Shown here one piece after another: positions 10,921 through 31,566 of a DNA stretch of 64,000 nt. Source of the stretch: Synechococcus sp. (lineage in GTDB: Bacteria; Cyanobacteriota; Cyanobacteriia; PCC-6307; Cyanobiaceae); NCBI GenBank assembly GCA_047285805.1, contig JBJBCN010000002.1, positions 1,120,001 to 1,184,000 of the forward strand, in the 5' to 3' direction. Both the position numbers and the translations under genes were made by a program. Each line of letters opens with the position of its first letter. The first letter of the stretch is position 1. Below the pieces are notes generated by a model. That model had not been told where the DNA came from. It worked only from the letters and a program-made list of their open reading frames with translations, and ran no database searches.

Positions 10921-10928
10921 CGACTTGA

Positions 10929-12183: not shown

Positions 12184-14010
12184 ATGAGTTCAAACGATCA
12201 TATTCTTGTTGATTGCCCACCTTATGGGACTTTCAAGGTTGCCGCGACATCCGAATTCATTTGCTGGAGAGCGACATCATTTCACACAAAAGAACCGACA
12301 ACCATTCAATGGTTGCAGTCGCTAGAAAAAGATTCAGTATTGATAGATGTAGGCGCTAACATTGGCATTTATACTATTCCAGCCGCTCTCTTTCATGCAA
12401 AGAGAGTGATTGCAATTGAGCCCGAGATCAAAAGCTACCGAGAGCTGATAAGAAATGTCGAGCTTAATGGTGTCGATAAAGTCGTGGATGCGTTACCTTT
12501 GGCTGTATCAACAGAATTTGCAAATTGCGTCTCAAGCCTGTATCTGACAAGTGACGAGCCTGGTTCGAGCTGCCACCAGGTTGGCCGCAATCAGAATTAT
12601 TTGCTGAATCCTACCAATGAAGAGAGGAAAAGAAGATCTATTTATTGCATTTCACTATCTTCAATAGTCACCAAAGCTCATGATGAGAATCCAACATCTC
12701 CACTGCATATCAAGGTTGACGTGGATGGGATCGAAGAAGATGTTTGCCAGTCGCTATTTGACTCGAAGGCTTTAAACTATGTCAACACCCTTCAAGTTGA
12801 ACTGAATCCCGCAATACCCCAACACGGTAGCCTCATCAACAAGTTACAAGATCATGGATTCAGCTATTCAAAAGCACAGGTTGCTAAGGCAGCTAGAAAA
12901 AGTGGTAATTTTGAAGGTTTTGCTGAATACGTATTTCGTCGATACATCACTCGTGGACTTGCATCGAGCTTACCGGAAGATGTATCAAGTAAGTTTTATT
13001 TTGTAGATGATGAAGATGATCAGTCCGATGTTTCAGGCTTAGTGCTTGGGTCAAAGCTTAAACCTAATTCAGTCAAAAGCTTTTTTTCCAATACTTGCAA
13101 TCCTGTAGAAATATCAACAAGTCCGCCGGCTCTGGTGCTTCCTCAACTGCTAAGTGTTGGCGAATGCCTTGAAATATGCTCTTCACTCGGACAATGCATT
13201 GAAGACTCGAATGATTTTGGGTTTAGTTCCAGTTCGGGTTTTAACAAGGATGAAAATCGGCGTGCTATTTCAACCGAGAAGCTACTTCAAGTCGATATGC
13301 CATATGTGCAGCAGCTGTTTAGGCGTTTTTCCGATATTGAGATACCCAGGTCTATTATTAAGAAGAGCATGCCCATATTAAAGTCGTATTTGGGGCTTGA
13401 AGCGAAAAACCCATTTGTTCCTGGGCTGAAACTAACTGTAAGAATACGACATTTCCTAGATCTCCAAGGTTTTTATCTCACTTGCCACCATGATTCGAGG
13501 GACACTCTTTTTGCTCTGGTTTGTCCGTTGACGCCATCATCAAGTACTACTACCTTATTTAACTCAGCTCCTGAAACGAATAATCGAGCTCCATCAGACA
13601 AATCATTGCGCCTTGAGTCACAGTTTAGAGGTGGGCATTTTTATGAAACTTCAGCCAACGTAGATGGCATCTACAGGGTAGTAAATGGTGATGGTGACAA
13701 CTTGTATTGCCTTTATGCACATAGCACATATCTTCGGCATGGTGACACATTAGTTATTCCAAATTTGGGATCAGAGGCCTTTGCGAGACCTGACTGGGGA
13801 CAGAATAATCCTCTTGCGCACTTTGGTCATGGAGTTTTCCCACCAATCCCAGATTTATTAAGACCGGTACTGTTGGTAGATTATATGGTTTCCAAGCAGG
13901 AAGATACGGATGTATACTCAACACTATTTGAGACTAGAAAACAGAATTCTCTGCACGTTCATATTTGCCCGTTGGATCATTTACTTGTTGAGCACACTAA
14001 AAGTAAATAG
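12184..14010 (+). CDS. FkbM-family methyltransferase fused to a putative 2OG-Fe(II) oxygenase-like domain
   Basis: KEPTT, IDVGANIGIY, IEP, HIKVDVDGIE; C-terminal half has HxD (HHDS) and a distal HGV. Confidence 0.8.
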   Translation: MSSNDHILVDCPPYGTFKVAATSEFICWRATSFHTKEPTTIQWLQSLEKDSVLIDVGANIGIYTIPAALFHAKRVIAIEPEIKSYRELIRNVELNGVDKVVDALPLAVSTEFANCVSSLYLTSDEPGSSCHQVGRNQNYLLNPTNEERKRRSIYCISLSSIVTKAHDENPTSPLHIKVDVDGIEEDVCQSLFDSKALNYVNTLQVELNPAIPQHGSLINKLQDHGFSYSKAQVAKAARKSGNFEGFAEYVFRRYITRGLASSLPEDVSSKFYFVDDEDDQSDVSGLVLGSKLKPNSVKSFFSNTCNPVEISTSPPALVLPQLLSVGECLEICSSLGQCIEDSNDFGFSSSSGFNKDENRRAISTEKLLQVDMPYVQQLFRRFSDIEIPRSIIKKSMPILKSYLGLEAKNPFVPGLKLTVRIRHFLDLQGFYLTCHHDSRDTLFALVCPLTPSSSTTTLFNSAPETNNRAPSDKSLRLESQFRGGHFYETSANVDGIYRVVNGDGDNLYCLYAHSTYLRHGDTLVIPNLGSEAFARPDWGQNNPLAHFGHGVFPPIPDLLRPVLLVDYMVSKQEDTDVYSTLFETRKQNSLHVHICPLDHLLVEHTKSK

Positions 14011-14823
14011 GCTGATGGAATGAATGCTATTGATAGTCTTATTGCTCGGTGAACAGAGTTAACTGGAAAGAGAATAGCTTGCCTCTTTCGTTTGCGCAGC
14101 AAGATTAATTTAGATTGAGCCAGCACAAACCCGTGATGATAGACCAAAGCATTCATAGTCCTTCGAAATCATTTACGCGATAGTTTCTCGCCATGAATGT
14201 TCAAGCTCATCACAGCGCAACAAATACAAGAGCCCAACCTAAAGAGATTGACGACTTATACCATTTGCCTAAAGCAGTTGAATCTCCATTATTAGAAGAG
14301 TAGGTTTCAGTCAAATAGCATCAGTCGACTTTGGTTGAGGTTTTGACTTCTTCGAGCAAGTAGCAAAATGTCTTTTCTAGAATCATTCAGCACATACCCT
14401 CCAACCCCTTGAATTCATAAGGGTTTCGCTAAACAGGAGTACACACGGAGCTACAAGAACTTACGCTCATTGGAATCATTGATGCAGAAACCATCCGTTA
14501 TTGTTTATGGCGCATCTTCAACAGAAATGGGTTTTGAAGAAGAATTTGGTTGATCTCTGATGTCTCGGACTGACAATACTTACTGGATTTATTCTAGTTA
14601 GGTCAGTATTATCCATTTCTGTCGTTATTGCGATCGTGACCTTTGCTACAGAATCGGAAAAGAAGTAGCAAGCAAACGCCATCGAATAACGTATTAAAGT
14701 ACACCCAAAAACTCGTGATCCCGAAGCACTACGCAGGGCGAGAGTGATTGAGTACATAGCGGTCACACAACAGGTCTAGTCGCAGTAGTGTGAATCGGTG
14801 CGCTGGCGAAAAAAACGAGCTCA

Positions 14824-15822
14824 ATGCAGCAGTCCCTAAGCATCTCGCTGGTGGCACTCAGCTCTTTTGCTTTCTCCATCACAACACTGGCTACCGTCAG
14901 CGCCAAACCAGATGAGGTGGCTTCCGGCCCTTATGGTGACGTTGGGTAATGAGGATCAAGCTCACGGGAATCGGCAAACTGCAGATCGCATCCAAGGTCA
15001 AACACAAGCCGCTCGCACCCTCTACCAAGCAGGTCTGGGTGGCTTCCTTTCCATGGTAGTGGGCAGCAACAGCGTCTTCTTTGCTGATGTGCGGGCGAAT
15101 GCAAACTTCGCGGACCGAGGCAGCATCAGCATCAATACCAAGGTGGCTGGTACCACCATCAGCACGTCATCCAGGCTGTGTTGCGTCTGACTGAACGTTG
15201 ACCGCAGTTGGATATTTGGCGTCAACGGTGGGTATGACACCCGACCGATGGCAGCTGGTGATGCCGCCGATACGGGCGTTGCGGTCTCTGATCAGTGGAC
15301 AGTCTTTTTCCAGCAGGCAGGGTTTGCTTGGAAGCAGTGAATGATGACTGGAACTTCAATACCTACGGGCTCATCCCAACTGGAACAACTGAATACAGGC
15401 TAAATAGTCGCTACAACGAAGGAGCAGTGGATACTTACGGGTTTAATGCAGGCTACAGCCTCACGACAAAGTGGAAGCTCAGCGTTGGCTATTACTACCA
15501 AAACCGCGACCTCAATACAGCTGATGGCTCAGGCGTGCTTGGGCGACTGACTTACAGCATCAATGAGGGTGTAACGGTTGGTGTCAATCTGTCTTATGAC
15601 AGGGCGCTTAAGTCACGCTTCTCGGCTGATATTAAGTGGCGGTTTAATACAGCAGGAATTACGCAAAGTGAAAAGCACAAGCAGGTGTGGGAGTAGCCAA
15701 CGATTAAGGCACTAACTGAGAGCGTTAAGAATAGGGATGTGCCGGTGCACGATTGCGAGGGTAATGGGGCTTGCAGGCGTAACGGGTTAAGAGGGTGCGG
15801 AGGCACTGTTTGTGGTATTTGA
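14824..15822 (+). pseudogene. Inverse-autotransporter beta-barrel paralog 1 (frameshifts and stops)
   Basis: MQQSL.. start; homologous in pieces to 30511-31542; ends NRDVPVHD-CEGNGACRRNGLRGCGGTVCGI*. Confidence 0.88.
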
Positions 15823-15887
15823 ACTGACAGCTGCTTACTGTCTGTTTTTACTGTTCAGGTTAGTAACTGACTGTGGCTAGGCACCCT

Positions 15888-15915
15888 AAACCCCTACCAG
15901 CGCAGGGGCTTTTTA
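15888..15915 (+). terminator. Degenerate intrinsic terminator after paralog 1
   Basis: aaacccctaccagcgcaggggcttttt. Confidence 0.6.
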
Positions 15916-16460
15916 TTGCTTCAATTACGCCAACAAGCCAACAAATCAGCACCCAGTGTCTAAAGAGGTTGTACTCTTCAATGAGGGCAAGTTTGGGTTT
16001 TGATCAGCGATACCAGCTGCTGGTGACTGCGAACAAACCTCCTGCGCTGAGGACTGTCGTAGTCCCCTTCAATAACCTCCAGAGTCGACGTGCCACCCAG
16101 CAGCCAGTCGCTCATCGGCCTCATCAAGCCCCATGGTCATGCCGCTTTCCTCAGAAAACGCTTGTCCTGATCGAGCTGCATCACCCGGAGTGCTTCGTAG
16201 TCTTCCGTGCACTTCTGGCAGCTACAGGGGACGCCATGCAGATCCCAGCGGTCTAAAAGGAAACCAGTCAGCTCAACTTGGTCTTTGTGGAACTTGGGCA
16301 AAGCTAGAAGCCGAAGGCCGGCTGCCCACTCTCAAGGAAACCAATGACGAATGGTTGCCGATTTCGTGGATGTCAGTGGGATCACATCGTTTTCGGTAGC
16401 CGTTGCTCCGCAATAACTACTTTTCTTTGTGGGCCTTCATCAGCGAGTACAAGCGGTCCC

Positions 16461-16619
16461 TCAATCGCTTTTCGAATCATCTGGACTCAGCAGCAGCTCC
16501 TCCAAGAGCCGCTCCATTAGGTCTCCTCGAATGCGCAGACGCAGTTTTCGCTTGGGCTGATCCACAGCGGCCAAGACCTCGGTGCTCAGCTCTAGGTAGA
16601 TCCGTTCTCTCTCGGCCAA
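16461..16619 (-). CDS. Small ribbon-helix-helix-like protein
   Basis: Translated by hand: (M)AERERIYLELSTEVLAAVDQPKRKLRLRIRGDLMERLLEELLL..; strand-helix-helix pattern. Confidence 0.4.
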   Translation of the reverse strand: MAERERIYLELSTEVLAAVDQPKRKLRLRIRGDLMERLLEELLLSPDDSKSD

Positions 16620-16766
16620 GTGCCTGGTCAGTTCATCGTTGCCCCATCAGGAATCGTCTAGGAAGTCTCGTCTCCCTTCATCCTGCCGCCGCCCAGCCAA
16701 CTGCTCTAAGCCCAGTGGCAATGCAGGTTGTTTTGGCAAAGCTCCGAGCAGTTGAGCGTGTCTGTG

Positions 16767-17753
16767 ATGCAGCAGTCCATTCGCCTGAGCCTCTCTCTCA
16801 CGGGTGCTGCAGCGCTGGCACTGGCATCAATGGCGCAGGTCAGCGCCAAGCCCGTTCAAGTCGCACAAGGCACAGCCAGTGACCTGGGTGTGATGAGCAT
16901 CAACCTCAAGGACATCGTCCAACCGCAGGTCGGCATCCAAGGTCAAACCCAAGCCGCTGGCACTCCCAACCAAGCAGGTCTGGGTGGATTCCTTCCACTA
17001 GTGGTCGGCAGCAACAGCGTCTTCTATGGCGACGTTCTGGCGAATGCCAACTTCGCAGACATCAACAACTCCTCCAGCATCATCAACACCACCGTTGCTG
17101 GCACCACCATCTCCACCTCATCCCGCCTGGGCTATCGCTGGCTCAATGGCGACCGCAGTTGGATGGTTGGCCTGAATGCGGGCTATGACACCCGACCAAT
17201 GAGCACGGGTGATGCCGATACAGGCATTCCTGTCTATGCCTCACGCACGGCTTTCTTCCAGCAGGCTGCTGTCAATGCAGAAGCGGTAAGCGATAAGTGG
17301 GCATTCAATGCCTATGCGCTTATCCCAACGGGTGACACCAAGCAGGTCCTCAACACCGTCTATCAAGGCGGCGCACTGGACACCTACGGCTTGGATGCGG
17401 GTTACAGCCTGACGCCAGCCCTAAGAGCATCTGTTGGTTACTACTACCAAAACGGCGATGCAGGAGAAGCAGATGGCTCTGGTGTCTTGGGTCGCCTCGC
17501 TTATGCCATCAATAACGAACTAACTATTGGCACCAACCTCTCTTATGACAGTGCCTTCAAGTCACGCTTCTCCGCTGATATCAAGTGGCGCTTCCAGACC
17601 AATGGCGGTCCTGGCAAAGAAACACCGAAAAACAATGCTGCCATTGAAGCCCTAATATCAACGCCAAGTAATCGGGATGTGCGGGTGCATGACGACTCCA
17701 GAAAGACACGAGTCACAATGGTCGATGGCTCGGTCAAGTTTGTAAACGACTGA
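16767..17753 (+). CDS. Inverse-autotransporter (intimin/invasin-type) beta-barrel protein, paralog 2, intact
   Basis: Signal peptide; RLGYRWL..WMVGLNAGYD; FFQQAAVNAE..NAYALIP; linker PSNRDVRVHD plus 19-aa tail. Confidence 0.85.
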   Translation: MQQSIRLSLSLTGAAALALASMAQVSAKPVQVAQGTASDLGVMSINLKDIVQPQVGIQGQTQAAGTPNQAGLGGFLPLVVGSNSVFYGDVLANANFADINNSSSIINTTVAGTTISTSSRLGYRWLNGDRSWMVGLNAGYDTRPMSTGDADTGIPVYASRTAFFQQAAVNAEAVSDKWAFNAYALIPTGDTKQVLNTVYQGGALDTYGLDAGYSLTPALRASVGYYYQNGDAGEADGSGVLGRLAYAINNELTIGTNLSYDSAFKSRFSADIKWRFQTNGGPGKETPKNNAAIEALISTPSNRDVRVHDDSRKTRVTMVDGSVKFVND

Positions 17754-19143
17754 ATTATTTTACCAATCCCATTAGGTCCTTGGGTGGGGAGATTTCCCAG
17801 AGACTTAAGTGAGGGGAATCACTCCTTGATAGCCTGCAACAAATTGCGAAACATATAAGTCTTCAGTGCGAGATCGCGAAAACCAAGAAATCAACATCCA
17901 ATATCTGGCATCATTGCCATCAACCTAGCTTGACGACAGACCCATCAAGGCACTGAATAGAAGTCACCTCAGAATATGAATTCGACTGTGGGCAGTTTTC
18001 AATACGTTGAAGAAAACCGTCAACATATCGATATTCACTCACACCTTTTCCTATGCCGTCACGGTTAGCCGGCACGAAGAAGAACGTTTTTGATGGTTGG
18101 GAGTTCCATCAAACTCCATTGAATCCAGTCGCAGAAAGCGTTCTCAAGGAATTGGTAGACAGGGTTGTGAAATAGGTAGGCAAACACGTGCACTCAGTGC
18201 GGAATAAGGCCGCTCCGGCACCGAACAACACTTGAGCGCCCGGTGATATGGATTGGACCCACTGCTGGTATGCACACCTAAACCGGTGCCTCATCTCGTC
18301 CTGCAGTGGTCCTCAGATCCACAGAAAAAGTTCATTTGGTTACAAACGGCACATCACCGCCAAAGCGGCTGCTGGATCATTTGCTTGTGACCTCCGGGTC
18401 GGGCAAGGGAGATAGCTGAGGCGGGCTGGAACCGCCTTTTTCATGTCCGCCGGACCGCTGCTGGGTTGCATCAGCAGACGCTGCTGCCATTCCTGCTCCA
18501 GCTGGTCCAGGCGGGTGCTCACGGCTGGGTTCACTGAGGGGCGCCCAGTGATCGGCTAAACCTGGCAACAGATGTGACGTGAGTGGCTGCAAATGCCAGC
18601 AAACGGAAACCCGGCATGGGGGTATCTGGAGCCCTTCTGACTCAATGAAGTGGGCTCAGAAATTTGCGGTTGGAACTTGTCGCATGTGTGGGAAAAAACC
18701 ACAGCTGATCGAGGCTTCAGTCAAGAGGGGATGTATCGAGGACGGGTACTTCAAAGGACATCCAAACGCCAGTCAGTCCACGCCGAAATTCATTCACGTT
18801 GGGAGCGGCTATGCGGGTTTACGTCTGGCGAGTCCTGAGTTGGCTGTGAATGCTGAGGAGGCTTCGTACAACTTGCACCCTTGGCGCTTCTCTTGCGGTT
18901 GGTTGGTTTCCCGAGCAAGGTTGGACTTTTGTCCATGCTCGACGTGTTGTCAGCGGAGCTTTGTTCTGGGTTCATGAGCCGTCCCAGTGACGTACCAACG
19001 CTGGCAATAGCTCTAGTGGTGTCGCCAGCTCATGCCAGCAAACGGACACCGTGTATGGGTTAACTGGAATCCTTGTGAGTACGTGAAGTGGCTTCAGAAA
19101 TTTGAGGCAGGAATCGGCTTAAACAAGAAACCGCCCAGATGAA

Positions 19144-19253
19144 TGGCGTTTCACCAACCGGCAGCCAATCAGCTCAGGGGCAACGACCTCCGCTGGACGG
19201 CACAAGAAGGCGTGGGGCAGGGCGGGGAAAGCTTGGGTGATGGGCTGGGTGGC
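19144..19253 (-). pseudogene. mpg: N-terminal fragment of DNA-3-methyladenine glycosylase (Mpg/AAG)
   Basis: Reverse strand reads [28 protein letters not shown], then homology stops. Confidence 0.65.
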
Positions 19254-19368
19254 TATGGGAGTGGCTTCTTTATCTGTCTTCATCGTGCCGCCGCCAAGCC
19301 AACTGCTCTAAGCCCAGTGGCAATGCAGGTTGTTTTGGCAAAGCTCCCAGCAGTTGAGCGTGTCTGTG

Positions 19369-20333
19369 ATGCAGCAGTCCATTCGCCTGAGCCTCTCTCT
19401 CACGGGTGCTGCACCGCTGGCACTGGCATCATGGCGCAGGTCAGCGCCAAGCCCGTTCAAGTCGCACAAGGCACAGCCAGTGACCTGGGTGTGATGAGCA
19501 TTCAGCTCAAGGACATCGTCAAACCTCAGGTCGGCATCCAAGGTCAAACTCAAGCCGCTGGCACCCCTAACCAAGCAGGTCTGGGTGGCTTCCTTCCACT
19601 TGTGGTCGGCAGCAACAGCGTCTCCTTTGCTGATGTCCTGGCGAATGCCAACTTCGCTGACATCAATAACTCCAGCATCATCATCAACACCACCGTTGCT
19701 GGCACCACCATCTCCACCTCATCTCGCCTGGGCTAGCGCTGGCTCAATGGCGACCGCAGTTGGATGTATGGACTGAATGCGGGCTACGACACCCGACCAA
19801 TGAGCACGGATCCTGCAGACACAGGTATCCCTGTCTATGCCTCACGCACCGCCTTCTTCCAGCAGGCTGCCGTCAATGCAGAAGCGGTGAGCGATAAGTG
19901 GAACTTCAATGCCTATGCGCTCATTCCAACGGGTGACACTGAGCAACAGCTCAACACCGTCTATGAAGGCGGTGCACTAGACACCTTCGGTTTGGATGCC
20001 GGTTACAACCTCACCAAAGCTTTAAGAGCATCTGTTGGTTACTAATACCAAAACGGCGATGCAGGCGATGCCGATGGCTCTGGCGTCTTGGGACGCCTCG
20101 CCTATGCCATCAACAATGGACTCACTGTTGTCACTAATCTTTCCTACGACAGTGCCTTCAAGTCACGCCTCTCCGCTGACATCAAGTGGCGCTTCAATAC
20201 CAATGGCGGTCCTGGTAAAGAAACACCGAAAACCAATTCCGCCATTGAAGCCCTAATATCAACGCCAAGCAATAGGGATGTGCGGGTACACGATTGTTCC
20301 CTGGAGGTTCTTGCGCAATTGGGGCAGTGTTAG
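19369..20333 (+). pseudogene. Inverse-autotransporter paralog 3 (1-bp deletion near 19430, TAG 19734, TAA 20043)
   Basis: Close to paralogs 2 and 4; ends NRDVRVHD-CSLEVLAQLGQC*. Confidence 0.9.
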
Positions 20334-20380
20334 GGGGGGGGAATCTCCTAATCAGTGGAGAATTGGGAGCCTAATCACCC

Positions 20381-20408
20381 AAAGCCCCTGCAACCGCAGG
20401 GGCTTTTT
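20381..20408 (+). terminator. Intrinsic terminator after paralog 3
   Basis: aaagcccctgcaaccgcaggggcttttt. Confidence 0.85.
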
Positions 20409-20890
20409 ATTTCTTCAGTCACACCAATAAGGCAATAAACCAGCCTCCAATGCCTGGCACCATCGCCATCAACGCAACCTGACGGCAGACCCAACGAGGC
20501 ACTGAATAGAAGTCAACTCAGGAAAACACATCAGCTGTAGGCAATCTTCTATAAGTTAAAGTTAAACCGTCAACAGGTCGACATTCACTAAGGCCTTTTT
20601 TCTATACCGTCACGCTTGTTCGGGACAGAGGGGGACTTTTTCTATGCATGGGAGTTCTAAGGAAACTCCATTTAATCGAGTCGTGCCACGCGCTCTCAAG
20701 GAATCAGTAGACAGGTTTGCCACAAGAGGTAGACAACCAAGTCCACTCAGCGAGGCAGAAGGCAACGTGCAGCGAGCTGCAGCGGCAACAACTAGCAAAG
20801 GAAGGTTGTATGTCGATTGCAGATTCGTTGGAAGCAGCGCGGAAGACGGCCAGTGCCATCAAATTGAAAGGCACGACTACCAGCGGCAGG

Positions 20891-21047
20891 TCTGCTCAAG
20901 GTCGGCTGAATGCCCGTAGAGGCACTTTGAGGAGCCGATCAGGAGGTGTAGCTGTCTGCTCAGCATTCAGGCGTAGAAGCCCCTAGGGGGGGGGGGGAGC
21001 TGGGTCCATGCGCCTACGTAATACGGCTTCAGAAAATTGGGCCAGGA
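20891..21047 (+). pseudogene. Duplicated 3' fragment of the DUF1651 gene plus its downstream sequence
   Basis: Matches 26041-26198, with two TGG>TGA changes. Confidence 0.75.
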
Positions 21048-21087
21048 AACCATCTGAAGCCGAGGCCCTTCCAATTCACATCAATGG

Positions 21088-21258
21088 TCAAGAGTCAGCG
21101 AACACGTCATAGATCGGTCGAATAGAGCGACTAACCTTTTCTGAGCGCTCTTGAGCTATTTCAAGCCTCCGCTTAGTCGTTGCAAGCTCAACTTCTATCG
21201 CCAATTGTTCAAGCTGAGCACTTAGAAGCTTTTGGGTTCGCGCTGAAACATTTGCCAT
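21088..21258 (-). CDS. Small helical/coiled-coil protein (56 aa)
   Basis: Translated by hand: MANVSARTQKLLSAQLEQLAIEVELATTKRRLEIAQERSEKVSRSIRPIYDVFADS. Confidence 0.45.
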   Translation of the reverse strand: MANVSARTQKLLSAQLEQLAIEVELATTKRRLEIAQERSEKVSRSIRPIYDVFADS

Positions 21259-21419
21259 GGTTATCGGTTAATTTGCTGAAAGCTATAAATTGAATTCGGC
21301 AATCGCGTAAAGACTTTACGTATCTACACCTATGCATGTAGTTAAGTGAAGCATTTGCTTGGCTGGGCCTCATTGGCGGGGTGTTCGGTTTGCCGCTTCT
21401 GGCTGCAGGCAGCCCCTTG

Positions 21420-21845
21420 CACGCTTGCAGCGAACTAAGCCATAACCACTGAGGACACGGTTCCCCGCAGACCCTTTGATCCGAGAAGGGGGAGCGGCTA
21501 CCTCCCCGACCTCAACACTCCCCGTCACTAAGCAGTAGCTCGGGGAGCTGTTTGGCGAGCAAGCAAAAAGCCGGTCACCAATCGGCTCCTTTCTCTCCCC
21601 GTGCACTGCACGGCACTCCTTGGTTTTGGCTCATCTGGATACAAAGCGCCAGTAGCGTGTCTGCAGTCGCAGTAGAGCTTCTTTACGAGCCCTCGCACTA
21701 CCCACATGGGTTTTGCCATAACCGATCTGAGGAAAGCTGATTGGCGAGTCCCAGCGATCCGACGGGGAGCCAACTCCCTCCCCGATTTCTCCCTGAGCCC
21801 GCCCAATACCCCTCCGACGCCTTCGTTTTGAAGTCGGAGGTTTTT
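21420..21845 (+). ncRNA. Candidate structured non-coding RNA with two copies of an internal motif (possibly Cyano-2-related)
   Basis: Dense hairpins, three GCGA-containing loops, duplicated GCCATAACC..CTGAGGA..GATCCGA..GGGGAGC..CTCCCCGA, 3' terminator, no convincing ORF. Confidence 0.6.
21810..21845 (+). terminator. Intrinsic terminator closing the candidate RNA
   Basis: cctccgac...gtcggagg stem followed by ttttt. Confidence 0.75.
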
Positions 21846-22205
21846 GCCTTATGGCTAGGCTTGACGGGTCGGCGTCAGCAAGTGCAAGTGGCACCTAGGC
21901 AGCTTTAACTGAAGGAGGCCTCAGTCGCCTGAGCTGCAGACGGTTTCCACCAGTCCAACACTGGTCTCGAAGCTCTTAGACCAGCACGTCGCTTATGCAG
22001 TCGCTGTAAGCGCAAACCTCTGTGGCTAGTCATCACATGGAGGTTTTTTCTTGGCTGGTCGCTGAAGGGTTGCTTACGGCTAGATGCTGGAGAGCCTCAG
22101 GCCCAGTCCTTAGTCCCACACACAACGCTCAATGGGTGACCAAAGACACGTCACCGCTGAAGGCCTGGCCGCACTATTTCACCAAGACCTTCGAATGGGT
22201 TTCAA

Positions 22206-22249
22206 GGGACAAAAAAGCGGCGGTGTGAAACCCGCCGCTTTTTTGTCCC
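22206..22249. terminator. 18-bp perfect inverted repeat, probable bidirectional terminator
   Basis: gggacaaaaaagcggcgg-tgtgaaac-ccgccgcttttttgtccc. Confidence 0.7.
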
Positions 22250-23089
22250 GATGGCCACTGCCGGGTTGCATCAGCAAACGCTGCTGCCATTCCGTCTCCA
22301 GCTGGTCACAGTGGGCGAGGACGGCTGGGTTAAAGAGGTGGTCGCGGAGGCTGAGTGTGAAATTCCTATGGAAAATCGTTGTTGGTGCACTCTGGGTGGG
22401 TATTTGTCCATTACTGAGGCCCCATAACGCATGAAGCGACTTACTTAAGCCATAGGCATTAGGGAAATGGTCGTCACTTGACTGGATAGATGGGGTTGGG
22501 GTGTCTTTCCGCTCACCCCACCTCAACGTTCCCCACCGCGAGCGGTGGTCTAGGAAGGTTGTGGCACTAACGATCTTCTTATTCCCATAGCGCAAGCCAA
22601 TGGGTGGTGCAGTGATCACACATAGACAATTCTTGTGCTTGTCAAGCCTGTATTTGGGATAGGCCTCCACAAGAGAGCTGAGTCTTCATTGATTCGACGA
22701 GTCCTAAGGCTCATCTCTATTCACGAAGCATGCATATAGAACTAATTCCATGCCCAAGACACTCTTTCATTGGAGAGGATGTTACAAGATCGACAAATCC
22801 ATTACATCAACAATACAGAAGACAAGGAGTGGCCCGCAACCCCAAGCTGTGAACTCGTAGATTGAGCCATCCGGCAAGTTCTTATTTATGCATAGGAGAG
22901 TCTTAGGCGGATTCTTTAGCACCCAACCGAAACCGCATTTTTGTATCCGAAAGCACCAAAGCCATGAAAACAACAATTAATAAGCGGCTCGGACAAGGGT
23001 TTGCTGACACAACCAACGAACGGTACCGTTTGATACTCGTTGTGTATTAGCTAATTCGCGAGAATTTTGATATGTATTCAGCTGTGTAG

Positions 23090-23506
23090 ATGCTTGCTCG
23101 CAGACCTATCGAGATCGTTCATCAGACTCCTCTACAGTCAGGTGTAGGGTTCTTTGGCGATCCACTTCCCAGTGACGAAACGCTAATTGCGGAGATTCCA
23201 CCTTGTGTGAGTCCTCAATTGTTTTGTCATCGCAATCAAACTGATCAACTGATGGTCCTGCGCGGAAGCATCGATCTAATAGTTCTGCAGAACCGGGCTT
23301 TGAAGCGGATAGCCCTTAGGGAAGATGAGGCCTTCTGGGTACGTATTCCAGCAGGTGTCCCACATGGCGCTATCAACCGAAGCCATGGCTCAGCCGTGCT
23401 GGTCAATGCAGTGTTGCGCCATGGTCCAAGCGATCTTCGTGATTATCGCCCTCGGCCTGTTCCCAACGCCCTACTGCCAGAATGGAATGATCTAATCAAC
23501 AACTAA
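23090..23506 (+). CDS. RmlC-like cupin (dTDP-4-dehydrorhamnose 3,5-epimerase-like)
   Basis: FCHRNQTDQLMVLRG and IPAGVPHGAIN cupin motifs. Confidence 0.75.
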   Translation: MLARRPIEIVHQTPLQSGVGFFGDPLPSDETLIAEIPPCVSPQLFCHRNQTDQLMVLRGSIDLIVLQNRALKRIALREDEAFWVRIPAGVPHGAINRSHGSAVLVNAVLRHGPSDLRDYRPRPVPNALLPEWNDLINN

Positions 23507-24130
23507 GTCATTATGAGAGCTCTATGCAGTTTCCAGAAAAAAGCTTTCACCAAAGTCATTGATAAAAAGATCAGATAATTGGATATGCATCTTTTGGTGC
23601 CATGATTAATTCAGATTGTGCGTATCTGGCAGCCCTAGATCCTCTAGGCGATAGTCCCGCAACCACGGCGGGAATTGAAAACAGCAGAGATTAACCACAT
23701 ATTTGATTCCGCGCAATCAATCAACAAGATCCGACCTTAAGTCTGGTTGACAATCTTCTTAATCTGGCTTCTGAACCCTGAAGCCAGTAAGAGCTGTACG
23801 AGTCTGCAAGGTGACTTGTTGGCATCGGGTCTGTTTCCCTTCAACCATTGCTTTAGTACGAAGAAGCATTTGACTTGTGGTCGCGCCCTGGGCTTCCATT
23901 GCAGCTGCGACAAGAAGCCAGTTTATTATTCGGTAGTTGATGAAGCTGTAGTTCGGTGGACTGAACCAACAACCAATGCGACCCCAGTGGACCTATCGCG
24001 CTGGAGGTTTCCGAACCATAAAGTCTCGCGAAAGGCTGAGGCAAGTGCTTTCCAGGCAATAGTTGCAATCGACACGTCAAAGGAAGAGCACCACTTGTCA
24101 TAATTGTCTCCAGCACGTGGTCCTGGGCCG

Positions 24131-24319
24131 ATGAGCGACGAGGTCGTAGCGAGTTTTCACTACAACTTGACGGCATTGAGGTTGGAGTACAAAACCACTT
24201 CTGATGCTCTTCAGAAGTGGTCAGGTGGTCCGGCAGAAGAGCAGGACTTTTTGGTCTACAAGAAACAAGAACTCTTCAGGGCCATGGTTGAGCAAAGCTA
24301 TCACTCGGATGCAGACTGA
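24131..24319 (+). CDS. Small hypothetical protein
   Basis: MSDEVVASFHYNLTALRLEY..WSGGPAEEQDFL; compact helical ORF. Confidence 0.6.
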   Translation: MSDEVVASFHYNLTALRLEYKTTSDALQKWSGGPAEEQDFLVYKKQELFRAMVEQSYHSDAD

Positions 24320-24936
24320 CACTAATTGACCACGAACGATCAGGTATTCGTCATCCATCAAGTTTTGAAGGCTTGAGCGACTCCGATACCCCAGCTGTCT
24401 TAATTCCGCTGCAATGCTTTTAATGGCCACTACTAACCCGATATCAGCGCCTAAACCAGCCAAAGGAATTTTGAGCTGACGCTAGACAAACCGAGCGCCT
24501 CTGGAGACCCACAGACGCTATTAAACGAAGGACCCTCAAGGCGCAAAACCATCTTGAAGCAACTAGAAGTGTGGGGGGGATCAATGATCTTTGCTCCACA
24601 GTTGCGAAGCCGCAAATCGCCAGGCGATGAAAGTACTTAGGGACGCGCCAAAGGCAAGAAGAGCTAACAAGAGCTGAGAGGTGGTCATAGAAGCACCCTG
24701 AATTGAATTTATTTATAAAGCCTTCATGGTGACTGGCGCCGTTGATACAAGATCAGGCGTATCAATCAATACGTCTTTTGGTGAGCCTAAATTACTTAAC
24801 TCACTTACCAATGAATGGTAGATCTGCGATTTTCATCAGAGTCCAGTTGACCTGCGGGACCACGACAAAAGAGGTGACTCAAGGTCAGAGTGTCCACCAC
24901 TCAAGACCTCGTTGTAAACTGATTCGATCCAGCCAC

Positions 24937-25173
24937 TCAAGAATCTGCTGCCTTTTGTCTCCAATGGGTTCCATGATTTCGCAAGGCTTCAGCTTCCATC
25001 TCCCTTCGAATCTGCACTACTGCTTCGCGCACGAAGGCTTTTTCGTGCTCCTGTGCGGCAATGATTTGCTTGGTTAGTGCACGTAAGGCATCAATATCTT
25101 CGCAGGCATCGATTTCTCGAAAGGCGGCCTCAAGGTGGAATTTTTGCTCCAGTGAGAGTCGGTGGTTAGCCAT
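24937..25173 (-). CDS. NblA-like small helical protein
   Basis: LSLEQKF motif near the N-terminus, 78 aa, two-helix pattern. Confidence 0.55.
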   Translation of the reverse strand: MANHRLSLEQKFHLEAAFREIDACEDIDALRALTKQIIAAQEHEKAFVREAVVQIRREMEAEALRNHGTHWRQKAADS

Positions 25174-25227
25174 GGTGGTACGAAAAGAGGCCCCACTCAT
25201 GTGAGGCCAGATAAGTCAGTTGAGTGC

Positions 25228-25395
25228 TTAGCGGACTTCCGAGATTGTTTGAGGTGCAGCCGGGAAGCTTGTTGGCATTGGGTCCGGCAGTCCTTCGGCA
25301 AGAGCCTTCGCGCGGACATACATCTGACTATTAATGGCACCCTGAGCTTCCATTGCCTCGGCGACAACAGCCCAGTTGCGGATCTCGGTAGTCAT
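25228..25395 (-). CDS. Small hypothetical protein
   Basis: MTTEIRNWAVVAEAMEAQGAINSQMYVRAKALAEG..DP; co-oriented with the NblA-like gene. Confidence 0.6.
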   Translation of the reverse strand: MTTEIRNWAVVAEAMEAQGAINSQMYVRAKALAEGLPDPMPTSFPAAPQTISEVR

Positions 25396-25852
25396 TGGAA
25401 GAAATGACGATTGAACCTGCAAACTTTCGCCACCTCAGCCGCGAGACGGTGAGGATGAAAACCGATCACCTACCGAACATCGATTCCACTTCTTTCGCTG
25501 GTAGGCATTTGCGGATCAAGTCAAACAAAAAGGCGACTGCAAGGCCACCTGATGCACTAAAAACCCAGTCCCAGTCAAGAAAGTCATGCGATCGCGTCCT
25601 GCATCGCAGCGAAGCTTTCAGGGTGTCTGACGGCGATATGGATCGACTGCAGCGCTCGGATGCCAGTCGTGGACTCAATTCGTCCATGTGATCGCCAGCC
25701 CCAGTTGTGACAAGCGTTCTTGTTGAAGCTTGGGTAAGGCGCTGTTTAGTCCCGCTATCAGGGTTTTGAACCCCCTATGAATAAGAAACTCTGAGGCTCC
25801 CGCCACAACCGGCTCAACCGGCTAGCCTGGTACAGGCGTACTAAGGCATGGG

Positions 25853-26101
25853 ATGTCAATAGGGGGGTTCATCCAGGATCCAGCTAGCAAGCAGGCCAAG
25901 CGCTTCCACCGCGATGAGAAGAGTTGGTCACAAGACCCCATGGTCTTTGTGGACACAGGCGTTCCGATTCCGGGCGAGCCTCCGCTCCTGAAGACTCGAG
26001 TGCACTTACATCGCAACGTTGCGGTGACCCTCTGGAACGATCTACTCAAGGTCGGCTGGAAGCCCGTAGAGGCGCTTTGGGGAGCCGATCAGGAGGTGTA
26101 G
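25853..26101 (+). CDS. DUF1651-family protein
   Basis: KRFHRD..VFVDTG...PPLLKTR..W..L.K.GW pattern. Confidence 0.75.
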   Translation: MSIGGFIQDPASKQAKRFHRDEKSWSQDPMVFVDTGVPIPGEPPLLKTRVHLHRNVAVTLWNDLLKVGWKPVEALWGADQEV

Positions 26102-26221
26102 CCGTCTGCTCAGCATTCAGGCGTAAACACCCCCCCCATGGGGGGCTCGTACGTCCATGCGCCTACATAATTCGGCTTCAGAAATTTGGGCCAGGAACCT
26201 CGATAAAGCCAAGCAAGACCA

Positions 26222-26257
26222 GTGCAGCGGCCTGGTAGTGCGGGTGCTTTGGGAGCA
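26222..26257 (+). repeat. Degenerate 5' half of tRNA-Pro(TGG), att-like scar
   Basis: gtgcagcggcctggtagtgcgggtgctttgggagca resembles the D arm and anticodon arm of tRNA-Pro; no T arm. Confidence 0.5.
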
Positions 26258-26418
26258 ACCGCAACTACAAGCGAGAAGCTAGTCATTCACTAGATCCAGC
26301 AAGTCTTAACCGGCTGTATTAGCGACAAACTAGCGACAACGCTCCTGCACTCACTCGATTTATCCGTGCGGACGAGCTGCAATCACGGCAACATCACTGC
26401 AACCACGTACCAGCGCTG

Positions 26419-27369
26419 ATGCTGCGGACCTTGTCGATTGGGTTAATGGCATCTGCATTCGCAGTCGCCACTCTCCCTGCACAAGCTGATGGGCATGGCA
26501 GCGCCAGTGACCTAGGCGTGATGAGCATTCAGCTCAAGGACATCGTCAAACCTCAAGTCGGCATCCATGCGCAAACCCAAGCCGCTGGCACCCCCAACCA
26601 AGCCGGTCTGGGTGGCTTCCTTCCACTGGTGGTCGGCAGCAACAGCATCTTCTTTGCTGATGTCTTGGCGAATGCCAACTTGTCGGACTGGGGTAACAGC
26701 AGCAGCATCATCAACACCACCGTTGCTGGCACCACCATCTCCACCTCATCTCGCCTGGGCTAGCGCTGGCTCAATGGCGACCGCAGTTGGATGTATGGAC
26801 TGAATGCGGGCTACGACACCCGACCAATGAGCACGGGTCCTGCAGACACAGGTATCCCTGTCTATGCCTCACGCACCGCCTTCTTCCAGCAGGCTGCCGT
26901 CAATGCAGAAGCGGTGAGCGATAAGTGGAACTTCAATGCCTATGCGCTCATTCCAACGGGTGACACTGAGCAACAGCTCAACACCGTCTATGAAGGCGGT
27001 GCACTAGACACCTTCGGTTTGGATGCCGGTTACAACCTCACCAAAGCTTTAAGAGCATCTGTTGGTTACTAATACCAAAACGGCGATGCAGGCGATGCCG
27101 ATGGCTCTGGCGTCTTGGGACGCCTCGCCTATGCCATCAACAATGGACTCACTGTTGTCACTAATCTTTCCTACGACAGTGCCTTCAAGTCACGCCTCTC
27201 CGCTGACATCAAGTGGCGCTTCAATACCAATGGCGGTCCTGGTAAAGAAACACCGAAAACCAATCCCGCCATTGAAGCCCTAATATCAACGCCAAGCAAT
27301 AGGGATGTGCGGGTGCACGATTATTGTTATCTACCCCGTCGGGGTGCGTGCCGATTGGGGATGGATTAG
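26419..27369 (+). pseudogene. Inverse-autotransporter paralog 4 (TAG 26761, TAA 27070), with a different signal peptide
   Basis: Body nearly identical to paralog 3; ends NRDVRVHD-YCYLPRRGACRLGMD*. Confidence 0.9.
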
Positions 27370-27421
27370 TATTTTTGTGCGATACATATTGTGTTTAGGG
27401 GTATTATTACCCTAGGCGCCC

Positions 27422-27612
27422 AAAGCCCCTGCAGTTGCAGGAGCTTTTTATTTCTTCAGTTACACCAATAAGCCAATAAACCAGCCTCCAAAACCTGGCA
27501 CCATCACCATCAACGCAACCTGACGACAGCCCCATCAAGGCACTGAATAGAAGTTGCCTCAGGATAAAAAGTCAGCTGTGGGTAGTCGTTACACGTTGAA
27601 GAGGAACTCCAT
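27422..27612 (+). repeat. Conserved module right end: terminator, about 140-bp spacer and exact ychF 3'-end att core (27589-27612)
   Basis: Close copy of 33112-33302; ttacacgttgaagaggaactccat is identical in both. Confidence 0.92.
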
Positions 27613-27768
27613 AGGTTCTAGTCATAGCAATAGATCTGAGCGGAAAAGCAGCAGTAGACTTTTAGTAGACTTATTTGGCACCCGAGTCGGCTTGCCTACT
27701 GTCTAGCAATACATAAGCACTACGCGGTTGACGTTCTGGATGAGGTCGAAGGTGAGCAATACAGTTGG

Positions 27769-28079
27769 ATGCGACGTTTCCTACCGCTGCGATTGGCGTG
27801 ATTGTAACGCCGCTGAGTGCAGCAGAACACCACGAGACGAAGCCGGCACAGGTCGTTGATGAAAGTGATACGAACCTTCCCGTGAGTCGTGGAAGGGTTG
27901 ACACCGGTTCTACAGAGCAGATTTACCTGATGCTCAAGGACGGTGGTTCCTTCTCAGCACCCATTCCAATGACGAACCGGTTCACTTGTGAACTAGAGGG
28001 TAAGAAGTTGGTTGAGACGCCCATCAAGGGCGTAGTCGGTCGCTGGAAGGAGTTCTGGTGTGTCGCTGGGATGAAGTGA
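27769..28079 (+). pseudogene. Second copy of the small secreted protein, apparently with a 1-bp deletion in the signal peptide
   Basis: Mature part highly similar to 11119-11433; ATG at 27769 is out of frame with the body (ctgctt versus cgatt). Confidence 0.65.
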
Positions 28080-28247
28080 AGCGACTGACCTGGGGCGAAC
28101 GTACTAAAAAAACAAAACAGCCTTCTCGGGCTACTTAATGGATTCGAGAGAAGAAATACTTCACCATCACTTTGATTAAGCAATATCGTTTAAGAACTGG
28201 AACACAGATATGGATTTCAGCATAAGGAGAAGAAGAAGACCTGGCAG

Positions 28248-29951
28248 TCACCCTTCAATGAGTGACCGGAATTCAGTATCCACAAGCTTTTGATGCACAC
28301 ATTGCGCAATTCGGCTCGTGAGAGGGTAGCCAGGATGAGAATCTACATGGACACCATTCCACATCCATCTTGGAGCTGCTTTGTCAATACCTGTAACCTC
28401 CTGTATATCAGGCAAGCATGAATGACTTGGTATTCCAGCGTGACGGAATAAGCCGTCAGCATATTCAAATACTTTGCTTTGACTCTGTAGACCATTCCAA
28501 GGAGTGAAAAACACATAAATGGGAGCTTGAGCTTCTTCAACCAAGGCTTTCACAGCTTGAACATTCAACGCATGCCGATTTGGATCCAGACTCATATCAT
28601 TATCGACAAATCCGAGGAGAATCAAATCGACGGAGTGCTTTGAGCCTTTTACCTGAAGAAAGTCAACCTGATCTCTAGTACTCCAACCGCCCTGCCCCCA
28701 ATAAAAGACTAAACAGCCAGGAACCAACTTCTGAAACTGAGCCGGCCAGCGCTCATCGCTTCCTGGGGAATTACCCCAACCCCATACAAACGAGTCACCT
28801 AGAACAGCAATTTTACACTTAGCTTGAAGATCGTAATCAGCTACTGGTCGGTCGATAAAGCCATATTCATTAACACTGCCAAGGCGTTTCCACAAGTTCA
28901 CTCGATTAATAAATTCACTCTTTATCGGCAAGTACGAAGGACTTCTTGATGCAGACTCATCAAGCAAACTGGTTGTTGAAAGCAGCAGGTCAAGAACAAC
29001 TAACGAAAAAGCTGTCATACAAGAGAAGACAAGTAGATTCACCCCCAATAGCTTGCTTGCCTTATCAAGGTTAATGGCAGTCCTGGCCTTACCTAAACCA
29101 CAGAGAAGCGGCAAGATCTCCGAAAAAAGAATCCATAACAGGAGGCAAAGAATTGCCCCTCTTAAATAAAGAGGGATATCAAAAGTCGAAAGATACACGA
29201 GAACGCCATCCGACTCTTCTACATAGAAATAAATAGGAGAAAGCCAGGGAATATACTCAGCAACAATCGTCTGAAGCTTGCCTACAAACAGAGCATCCAA
29301 ATGCCGACGAGACAAGAAGACTGAGGGGGCTTTTATCCATGGAACAAATAGGCCTCTGTGATACAAAGAAGTATCTTGCAAGAAACCACCCTTGCACCCG
29401 GCATCCAAAATACTATCAGGATGCAAAACAACAAATCCCAGAGGGGAGCGATCAGTCCATCCGGAGTAAAATGAGAGCGGTTTTTTTTTGGAATATTCAA
29501 CTGCCAAATCATCGGCCCTAGTTAAGCCATGGTCAAATAAGTCACCCAAGAAGCTTCTCTTGGGAATCAAGTAATTCCCTTTAGTTTCCAAGGGGACACC
29601 CTGAAAAGACTGGAGCTTCTGCTCGAGCCAATAAAAAGCTGGAGAGTGCCAAAGCACTTCTGAGCGTGGCTTACGAAAAGCCTGAGTTACATCAAGATTT
29701 CCAGAAGCAAGTGGTCCAGAATGAAAGTAAGTGTCTAGGTTTTTCTTTGGCTTATAACCTTCGTAGGGCGGCACAGAATAAAATCTTGTGGGCCTGACTT
29801 CAAATCGGAAGTAATCACTACTATCGATGCATTCCGAATTCCCCGATCCCATCAAGAACTTTGACGGCAGGCCTGGAGCAAATACAGCTGCTCCGAGTAG
29901 CGGCAAAAAAAGCCATTTAGCACCAAGCGGACATAAAGATCGAAGCTTCAC
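28248..29951 (-). CDS. Membrane-anchored SGNH/GDSL hydrolase-family protein
   Basis: AVLGDSF (block I), GQGGWST (II), GFVDND (III), DSHP (V); two internal TM segments. Confidence 0.8.
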   Translation of the reverse strand: MKLRSLCPLGAKWLFLPLLGAAVFAPGLPSKFLMGSGNSECIDSSDYFRFEVRPTRFYSVPPYEGYKPKKNLDTYFHSGPLASGNLDVTQAFRKPRSEVLWHSPAFYWLEQKLQSFQGVPLETKGNYLIPKRSFLGDLFDHGLTRADDLAVEYSKKKPLSFYSGWTDRSPLGFVVLHPDSILDAGCKGGFLQDTSLYHRGLFVPWIKAPSVFLSRRHLDALFVGKLQTIVAEYIPWLSPIYFYVEESDGVLVYLSTFDIPLYLRGAILCLLLWILFSEILPLLCGLGKARTAINLDKASKLLGVNLLVFSCMTAFSLVVLDLLLSTTSLLDESASRSPSYLPIKSEFINRVNLWKRLGSVNEYGFIDRPVADYDLQAKCKIAVLGDSFVWGWGNSPGSDERWPAQFQKLVPGCLVFYWGQGGWSTRDQVDFLQVKGSKHSVDLILLGFVDNDMSLDPNRHALNVQAVKALVEEAQAPIYVFFTPWNGLQSQSKVFEYADGLFRHAGIPSHSCLPDIQEVTGIDKAAPRWMWNGVHVDSHPGYPLTSRIAQCVHQKLVDTEFRSLIEG

Positions 29952-30169
29952 GGCCTAAGCGCTCTTCTGCGTAGTGTATTATACACACAAGGAGAGTTGA
30001 AGGTGAAGTATCCTCTGGCATGCGACCATAAAAACTTCCTGTAAGTATCTATATTTACTTATACAGAAAGAAGCCTATATGAATGCATCCAGCTCGCGAA
30101 AGCCCCACCAGTCATAGCGAAAACAATGTCTTCGACTAGAACAGAAAACCCCATGGCATGACTGGATGC

Positions 30170-30193
30170 TTATACGTTGAAGAGAAACTCCAT
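30170..30193. repeat. att-like copy of the ychF 3' end
   Basis: ttatacgttgaagagaaactccat, two mismatches to 33279-33302; still encodes MEFLFNV*. Confidence 0.88.
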
Positions 30194-30510
30194 AGGGTCG
30201 AGTAATAGCAAAGGATCTCAGCCGAAAAGCGGCAGTAGACTTTTCAAGCCGTCAAGCCAGTAGACAAAGCATCTTGTCTACCCTGATTCAGCTCACACTC
30301 ACCACTGTCTAGACTTCCGCAGGGCTGCACTAATCCAGAGCACAGGGGACGCCGACAATCTTCCAGTTCATTGGAATCGGTGACGCAGCAGGAATCGTCT
30401 AGGGAGTCTCGTCTGCCTTCATCGTGCCGACGACCAGCCAACTGCTCTAAGCCCAGTGGCAATGGCGGATTTCCTGGCGAAACTCCCAACAGAAGTTGAG
30501 CGCGAGCGCT

Positions 30511-31542
30511 ATGCAGCAGTCCATTCGCCTGAGCCTCTCCCTCACTGGTGCAGCTGCTTTGGCACTGGCATCAATGCCGCAGGTGAGCGCAAAGCCTGCA
30601 GTGGTGGCGCAAGGGAGCGCGGAAGACCTTGGAGTGATGAGCATCCGCCTCAAGGATGTGGTGAAACCGCAGGTTGGTGTTCAAGGTCAAACCCAAGCGG
30701 CTGGCACCCCGAATGAGGCAGGCATTGGCGGTTTTATGCCGCTGGTGGTGGGAGAGAACAGCGTCTTCTTTGCTGATGTGCTGGCGAATGCGAACTTCGC
30801 GGACTGGGGCAACAGCAGCAGCATCATCAATACCAAGGTGGCGGGTCCCACCATCAGCACGTCATCCAGGCTTGGGTATCGCTGGCTGAATGGTGACCGC
30901 AGTTGGATGTTTGGTGTCAACGGTGGGTATGACACCCGACCGATGGCAACGGGTGATGCCGATACAGGTGTTGCGGTCTCTGGCCAGCGGACAGTCTTTT
31001 TCCAGCAGGCAGCGTTTGGCTTGGAGGCAGTGAATGATGACTGGAGCTTCAATGCCTATGGATTAATACCAACTGGAACAACGGAATACAGGTTGAATAG
31101 TGCTTACAACGGGGGAGCACTGGATACGTATGGGTTTGATGCGGGCTACAGCATCACGCCAGAGTGGAAGCTGAGTGTTGGCTATTACTACCAGAATGGC
31201 GACCTCAATACAGCTGATGGCTCAGGCGTGCTGGGGCGACTGGCTTACAGCATCAATGAGGGAGTAACGGTTGGCACCAATCTGTCTTATGACAGCGCGT
31301 TTAAGTCACGCTTCTCAGCTGACATTAAGTGGCGGTTCAATACGGCAGGAATTTCGCAAAGCGAGAAGCAGAAGAAAGCGTGGGAGAAGCCAACGATTAA
31401 GGCATTAACTGAGAGCGTGAAGAATAGGGATGTACGGGTGCACGATACGACCTGGTGTAATACCCCAGGCGGGGAACCGGGAATATTAGTAACTACCCCT
31501 GGAGACGGGAAGTCTGTGTGTGTCACGCCCGCCCCAATGTAG
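30511..31542 (+). CDS. Inverse-autotransporter beta-barrel protein, paralog 5, intact
   Basis: Same motifs as paralog 2; ends VKNRDVRVHD-TTWCNTPGGEPGILVTTPGDGKSVCVTPAPM*. Confidence 0.87.
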   Translation: MQQSIRLSLSLTGAAALALASMPQVSAKPAVVAQGSAEDLGVMSIRLKDVVKPQVGVQGQTQAAGTPNEAGIGGFMPLVVGENSVFFADVLANANFADWGNSSSIINTKVAGPTISTSSRLGYRWLNGDRSWMFGVNGGYDTRPMATGDADTGVAVSGQRTVFFQQAAFGLEAVNDDWSFNAYGLIPTGTTEYRLNSAYNGGALDTYGFDAGYSITPEWKLSVGYYYQNGDLNTADGSGVLGRLAYSINEGVTVGTNLSYDSAFKSRFSADIKWRFNTAGISQSEKQKKAWEKPTIKALTESVKNRDVRVHDTTWCNTPGGEPGILVTTPGDGKSVCVTPAPM

Positions 31543-31566
31543 GGTGAGCCTAACCACCCAACGCCC

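Follow-up and report, generated by a model that had tools for sequence, protein, structure and literature searches.

The window, by which we mean the whole 64,000-nt stretch of Synechococcus DNA that was analysed, belongs to a picocyanobacterial genome of 2.37 Mb that is 100% complete (G000, hereafter the host genome). It includes a low-GC genomic island whose cargo comprises hairpin cassettes, DUF1651, cupin and FkbM methyltransferase genes, and repeated paralogous ORFs (Table 1). A ~340-aa signal-peptide protein whose C-terminal part is beta-rich and aromatic, and which has no Pfam hit, is represented by at least five paralogues; several are split by frameshifts, and more copies lie on other islands. 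A separate family of ~300-nt structured repeats, with at least eight copies in the host genome, has no BLAST link to the locus described here.

An earlier note, made from the sequence alone, had described positions 21420 to 21845 as one structured RNA of about 430 nt with a duplicated domain. Its observations are partly confirmed and its interpretation is partly supported. The window indeed contains exactly two occurrences of the motif GCCATAACC-N1-3-CTGAGGA (21439-21455 and 21715-21733), with two matches in 0 of 100 shuffles; the duplication is not local to the stretch, the 'domain' being one among about 30 dispersed copies, with a third, decayed copy nearby. The hairpins claimed at 21518-21547, 21569-21587 and 21599-21613 are all present in the sequence, as is a terminator-like hairpin at 21811-21840, followed by T5 at 21841-21845, which a simple terminator scan missed (its loop is longer than 8) when it reported 21569-21587. 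We also find no credible ORF: the four overlapping ORFs, of 62-92 aa, are disfavoured by a 1-nt indel relative to the sister copies and by paralogue matches that are partial (58-60 aa, in two paralogues). The three GCGA loops do not hold up, as none is a tetraloop and most GCGA bases are paired in the partition function; that at 21430 lies within an unconserved promoter spacer (kept in 4/33 homologues), that at 21555 within a variable junction (kept in 2/33), and that at 21744 forms part of the 12-nt loop that closes P1 in unit 2. In place of one 430-base RNA the stretch likely holds three adjacent mini-genes, each with a promoter-like box and then a short hairpin RNA.

Table 1. Features of the locus, of its island and of related loci; positions refer to the window unless a host-genome (G000 C2) or other locus handle is given.
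Feature	Position	Strand	Remarks
Low-GC genomic island	10001..34000	.	42-56% GC vs 59-67% in flanks
Unit 1 -35-like hexamer TTGCAC	21417..21422	+	TTG in 34-40/44 family copies per position
Unit 1 extended -10-like box AGC-CATAAC	21438..21446	+	18 nt after -35; start of the motif of the earlier note
Unit 1, predicted ~100-nt RNA, three hairpins	21453..21552	+	R1 134.6 bits, in training set; covariation
Unit 1 helices	P1 21453-21482; P2 21483-21513; P3 21514-21552	+	P1 from predicted +1
Middle unit, predicted 52-nt small RNA	21565..21616	-	short hairpin, purine-rich linker, terminator hairpin 21569-21587 + U-tract
Middle unit promoter-like box	21623..21651	-	-35 21651-21646, 17-nt spacer, -10 21628-21623
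Unit 2 promoter-like box	21693..21722	+	TCGCAC, 18 nt, CATAAC
Unit 2, predicted ~117-nt RNA	21729..21845	+	P1 21731-21760, P2 21764-21783, linker, terminator hairpin 21811-21840 + U5
Unit 2 linker segment	21786..21802	+	complementary to purine-rich linker + first hairpin of the predicted 52-nt RNA
Third, more decayed family copy	22420..22576	+	degenerate box; R1 58.8 bits, in training set
FkbM-type methyltransferase fusion, 629 aa	12121-14010	+	island cargo
Cupin	23090-23506	+	island cargo
DUF1651	25853-26101	+	island cargo
~340-aa signal-peptide paralogues	14867-15696; 16728-17753; 19143-20333; 26419-27369; about 30400-33000		
52-nt RNA candidate loci	G000 C2:978890-978964; L015:1499-1576; L018:1489-1578; L006:1496-1573; L020:2048-2141		box upstream, no Rfam match
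Yfr1/Yfr10-type motif loci	L180:317-471; L202:1028-1176; L271 near 6609 (-); L282 near 14543; L284 near 6160 (-); G000 C2:295300 and 1227520 (-)		
Two-hairpin leader loci	G000 C2:264830 (-); L270 near 3359; L273 near 5471; L277 near 4571; L275 near 5432		
~300-nt repeat loci	G000 C2:261054, 275736, 278623, 291146, 729716, 988682, 1314789, 1333991		

In the window copy of unit 1, P1 is interrupted by a C.U mismatch and P2 by a G.G one, and the fold z of this copy, -0.98, compares with -3.5 to -3.9 in three homologues and -1.6 in a fourth. The -10 of the middle unit is mutated to CAAAAC, against CATAAC or CATGAC in its paralogues. From the broken unit 1 pairs and this mutated -10 it follows that these copies may be dead; unit 1 may be partly decayed, and the copies of units 1 and 2 here are gene-less. 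The hairpin at 21569-21587, for which the terminator scan made a terminator-like call on the + strand, may also end unit 1 transcripts on that strand. The middle unit has six near copies and one diverged copy in the host genome, and stands alone at L015 and L018 (G041), L006 (G033), L020 (G023) and C2:978890 of the host genome; at L015 and L006 it adjoins Cyano-1/Yfr2.

Unit 2 was outside the training set of R1, the covariance model of the family, which nonetheless aligns it across the box with E = 6e-4 in 30 kb. Its P1 begins 2 nt past the predicted +1 and has 13 of 14 nt in common with the unit 1 junction, and its fold z is -1.71. The four full copies and one partial copy all lie in the host genome; the RNA is 93% identical among them and the spacer 80%, and they show no compensatory change. 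The linker of unit 2 is complementary to the predicted 52-nt RNA, with a cofold gain, calculated without a shuffled control, of -8.9 kcal/mol for the window's own copy and -13.6 to -19.6 kcal/mol for three homologues; this complementarity could reflect selection, or could simply have arisen when part of the adjacent strand was copied.

In both motif copies the first eight letters have the properties of a -10 box that follows a -35 box at a fixed distance: GCCATAAC stands 18 nt downstream of a TTGCAC/TTGACA-like box, and the gap from it to the first base of helix P1 is 6 nt in copy 1 and 8 nt in copy 2. Across 44 distinct copies the layout is a TTG-like hexamer, 18 nt, CATRAC, 6 nt and GGA (one row is off by one base), and in this alignment, anchored on the C and A at -12 and -11, these two bases are found in 44/44 copies and C at -7 in 38/44. 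The exact string TTGACA-N18-CATAAC-N6-GG recurs in five divergent copies (L211, L215, L225, L226 and L036). Identity between seven orthologous pairs, which are not independent as two sequences are used twice, is 90% in the -35 (38/42), 55% in the spacer (58/105), 98% in the extended -10 (62/63), 74% in the 6-nt gap (31/42), 90% over P1-P2 (370/410) and 61% upstream (182/297); boxes so much better kept than the spacer between them argue for a promoter footprint. A spacing-tolerant pattern, with 11 spacings allowed, has the 18-nt spacing in 11/11 matches in the host genome and 16/16 in G023, and, after removal of the five main carriers, in 14 of 36 matches from 15 genomes (nominal P = 1e-6, the loci being related). 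The boxes have the -35 near TTGACA, the 16-18-nt spacer and the A at -11 of sigma-70-type promoters but, with C at both positions, lack the T at -7 (and the usual one at -12), and a consensus promoter scanner detected no promoter at the locus. Boxes read by eye before the host's Yfr1 and many of its tRNA genes are of the TAnnnT type instead. The nine Sigma70_r2 matches in the host genome give no clue to the sigma factor reading the box. Two group-3-like sigma factor region-2 matches (C2:874246-874449 and C2:996452-996610) each contain an in-frame TGA.

The identical box type also lies upstream of unrelated short RNAs. It precedes RNAs with a Yfr1/Yfr10-type UCCUCACAC/UCCUCGCAC motif, which lies in some cases in a short RNA with a terminator and in others within a 5' leader (Table 1). 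In four genomes a two-hairpin leader ending in a U-tract separates the box from a 59-72-aa gene, with the ATG at +94 to +105; in G036 the leader is absent and the homologous gene follows the box directly, with its ATG at +16, a natural deletion that bears on attenuation.

The family fold opens at the predicted +1 with P1 (GGA...UCC, level with the 5' end) and continues with P2 (a G-run against a C-run), a linker rich in A and C, and P3. The structure behind the following counts was proposed by folding those very sequences, which are related. In a sequence-only MAFFT alignment (A2), 80.5% of cells pair and 14/34 pairs change on both sides, the covarying-pair count being reached by 116/500 shuffles and the other measures by 0-41; in both this alignment and the next, the share of paired cells and the covariation score are higher than in any of 500 shuffles. 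A divergent set aligned by sequence only (A4) pairs in 84.9% of cells, with 8/13 pairs changing on both sides (1/500 shuffles), and a model-fitted and hence biased alignment (A3) gives 19/34. RNAalifold run on A2 returned no consensus structure and no pairs. The strand signal is weak: G-U cells outnumber A-C cells 81 to 52, but their distinct types number 29 and 27, and no more than 14/33 copies have the better fold on the + strand. The search for covariation among homologues that the earlier note proposed yields compensatory changes in P1, and this covariation, the low-GC island and the lack of an Rfam family support the broader idea of the note, a structured non-coding RNA belonging to a mobile island. 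The proposed Rfam comparison gave neither a full-length match nor any Rfam 15 match, self-cleaving ribozymes and riboswitches included, over 21400-21860 at E<=10, and scans of 20 and of 12 loci with family copies found nothing over the element.

BLAST and iterated nhmmer identify 34 related places in the host genome at E<1e-3. The covariance model R1, built from 33 copies of G000, G023 and G041, matches 34 times in G000, 28 in G023, 17 in G041, four each in G036 and G022, two each in G025 and G004, and once in G033; matches are convincing in 8/45 genomes of the genus, and five more genomes have only weak ones, mainly to the upstream box. A second model, R2, agrees (10/45 genomes at E<=1e-4, two of them marginal). 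Outside the genus, with the best 20-25 candidates per genome scored, there was one borderline, unconvincing match among 151 genomes of the family and none among 150. Of 31 loci picked up by a pattern scan of metagenomes, 20 match over the length of the family, eight of these being identical, and 11 match the seed only; looser scans gave at least 118 loci in genome contigs and 15 and 1 in viral contigs, none full-length on re-scoring. Regions under 58% GC hold 25 of the 34 host copies (background 18.5%), and 5/6 multi-copy clusters in the host genome lie on one strand. The literature searched contains no description of the cassette family; one copy may possibly bear a name in the set of Gierga et al. 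2012, which reportedly comprises 32 sRNAs of marine Synechococcus. The family is real, apparently undescribed, lineage-restricted and of a known kind; its function and expression are predicted.

A box scan of the one island common to all carriers, presumably the ancestral home of the family, gave 17 copies in five paralogue groups, of which 11 lie 74-155 nt upstream of an intact small gene common to the orthologues (42 aa in 4/4, 113 aa in 2/4, 67 aa in 2/4 and 32 aa in 3/3); one further copy precedes an unconfirmed ORF. The 67-aa protein has 21 homologue clusters. Of 17 downstream ORFs compared with Pfam, only two had matches, to DUF3303 and to a phosphoribosyltransferase. At C2:1278348 and C2:780664, P3 occurs by itself after the stop codon that closes a lipoprotein-like ORF, which fits a terminator role, though the main subtype ends in CUGUUG, a poor U-tract. 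None of 18 tests against shuffles gave significant pairing between leader and start codon (best p = 0.05), although paralogue B looked good at first. At L225:1396-1449 (-) a glutamine-II riboswitch stands back to back with a family cassette.

The islands exchange blocks of 200-800 bp at 75-95% identity with varied breakpoints, and module breakpoints often fall at P3. Candidate mobilisation systems were considered and rejected. The host genome has no RT (RVT_1), Y1, IS110 or TnpB match (PF01797, PF01548, PF07282), supply in trans being possible, and its best TIGR02249 integron integrase match is 25.8 bits against a cut-off of 265; attC, REP/RAYT, IS110, TnpB and retroelement origins thus have no cognate enzyme there. 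Group II intron domains V-VI (RF00029) gave 0 matches at E<=5 in the same genome, which has no RVT_1, and eight tyrosine-recombinase matches are not linked to the element. A MITE is contradicted by the lack of terminal inverted repeats in most copies and of a target-site duplication signal, the longest shared word averaging 4.6 nt between own flanks vs 4.3 between cross pairs (24 copies). The inverted repeat GCCATAACC/GGTTWTGGC, taken as a terminal repeat, is explained as two convergent -10 boxes, the apparent partner being the -10 box of the convergent unit. From the shared island blocks, the varied breakpoints and the absence of mobilising enzymes, inverted ends and target duplications we infer that the cassettes spread by recombination between islands and not by a transposase of their own.

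What we consider somewhat better than an even bet is that the locus holds three adjacent cassettes, each with a predicted sigma-70-type promoter and a short hairpin RNA, units 1 and 2 being gene-less copies of a family with 5'-leader ancestors that was spread by recombination. Transcription would start at the first G of P1, and the 5' end, thereby base-paired, would be shielded from 5'-end-dependent decay; paired 5' ends can stabilise RNA. P3 would act as a leaky terminator or a 3'-protecting stem and yield a 100-120-nt RNA as well as read-through into any downstream gene, and recombination between islands would have multiplied the cassette. The convergent 52-nt RNA might pair with the unit 2 linker as an antisense or sponge pair, which is the weakest step.

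A promoter with a structured leader and a leaky end, to which we give the same modest confidence, is favoured over free sibling RNAs, which we regard as an unlikely but serious alternative, and the two are not mutually exclusive. Under the latter, free trans-acting RNAs of 100-120 nt would pair with mRNAs or sRNAs through paralogue-specific loops or the C/A-rich linker, downstream genes being incidental. Loops vary from paralogue to paralogue and hardly change among orthologues, good terminators close unit 2 and the middle unit, an RNA with a Yfr1/Yfr10-type motif stands behind the same box, and PMC6778093 describes sRNA-sRNA pairing of Yfr1, Yfr2 and Yfr10 in picocyanobacteria. Paralogue A is more easily read as a free sRNA than as a leader, since its RNA is kept through P3 and the U-rich tail where the downstream DNA has been replaced. 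Yet a conserved gene stands directly behind most of the home-island copies, and the main subtype lacks a real U-tract. A ligand-sensing riboswitch, with P1-P2 as aptamer and P3 as terminator, would share the 5'-leader position and the terminator-like last stem, would resemble the glutamine-II riboswitch in its many island copies, and could use the alternative G-run/C-run pairings seen in L004; we think it very improbable, as the nucleotides common to all paralogues are almost all paired, the variable parts are the loops, and the downstream genes share no pathway.

Two further explanations dispense with short RNA units altogether. A selfish or neutral dispersed repeat, MITE- or REP-like or a recombination hot spot, would fold as DNA and carry the boxes as binding sites of a mobilising protein. 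The roughly 30 copies, many of them decayed, with a median pairwise identity of 59%, the breakpoints at P3 and the weak strand signal would suit it, but inverted ends (in most copies), target-site duplications and the enzymes sought in the host genome (RAYT/Y1, IS110, TnpB, RT, IntI) are wanting, the boxes are not palindromic, orthologues hold their place across species, and P1-P2 is conserved far above the spacer; we judge it improbable. The single 430-nt RNA of the earlier note, Cyano-2-like or a ribozyme, is the least credible of all. In its favour, the whole block recurs at one sister locus with 88% identity over 448 nt (its 3' three quarters at two more), and the 451-nt stretch folds with z = -2.46, as good in 0/100 shuffles. 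Against it, promoter-like boxes lie inside the block on both strands, the middle unit is on the minus strand and occurs alone elsewhere, unit 2 matches and the full block are found in the host genome only, and the Rfam models of Cyano-2, of ribozymes and of group II introns find nothing here. A read-through transcript may cross the whole stretch.

Beyond the cassettes with leaky leaders that we prefer, a wider picture, which we think unlikely, is a portable island expression system, in which one non-canonical promoter type (TTG-N-18-CATRAC, without the -7 T) and interchangeable hairpin leaders would be recombined before new small genes, gene-less copies such as unit 2 would sponge the 52-nt sRNA, and one sigma factor or activator would govern an island-wide RNA network. 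The expression of horizontally acquired island genes in picocyanobacteria is poorly known, and the cassettes offer a defined, testable set, which comprises a candidate RNA-RNA pair, starts predicted to the base, and a promoter type that lacks the -7 T and precedes four or more RNA families. Yfr103 and other island RNAs can make up a dominant part of picocyanobacterial transcriptomes (PMC5069720). The locus itself is dropped from the candidates for long, ornate RNAs.

The identity with Cyano-2 suggested by the earlier note is rejected. RF01702 has no match at the locus (E<=10), its best score in the host genome is 12.7 bits, elsewhere, against a threshold of 40 bits, and the covariance search found none in the 45 genomes of the genus, the same search reaching 105-197 bits in genus g5; BLAST of the locus against four true Cyano-2 loci gave a best E of 0.2 and no meaningful similarity. 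A likeness remains in that both are multi-copy structured non-coding elements in gene-poor picocyanobacterial DNA (for Cyano-2, Weinberg et al. 2010, PMC2864571), although the gene-poor upstream kilobase (short ORFs only, one of them scanned, without Pfam hit) is not specific to it. A TTGC/CTGC...CAT-type box likewise precedes the true loci (in L242 and L243 it reads TTGCC-17-CATATT); they differ in having GCGA loops, where our locus has no GCGA tetraloops, and in length and fold. In L241-L244 a conserved TTGCC/CTGCA-17-CATATT box lies 20-60 nt upstream of the Cyano-2 matches, which suggests that transcription of Cyano-2 begins some 30 nt ahead of the Rfam model.

Closer parallels are found among other small RNAs. 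Yfr103 is likewise a multi-copy structured island RNA of unknown function, with seven paralogues in CC9605 and a length of 290-328 nt in many Synechococcus and Prochlorococcus strains, as given by Hou et al. 2016 (PMC5069720), whereas the cassette family has a predicted length of 100-120 nt and was found in one subclade of one genus, the two being set apart by description and not by sequence. Yfr1, Yfr10 and Yfr2 share the short hairpin-linker-hairpin form, with complementary single-stranded motifs that pair mutually (PMC6778093). Units 1 and 2 and the predicted 52-nt RNA differ in having no Yfr1 or Yfr2 motifs and no RF01116 or RF01701 match, and the host's Yfr1 is located elsewhere. Families of sibling sRNAs such as the csRNAs and LhrC, and stabilising 5' stem-loops such as the ompA-type leader, resemble the cassettes in their several paralogues, single promoter type, C-rich unpaired linkers and base-paired 5' end; the cassettes are distinguished by reaching up to about 30 copies, many of them decayed, and by being shuffled before different island genes.
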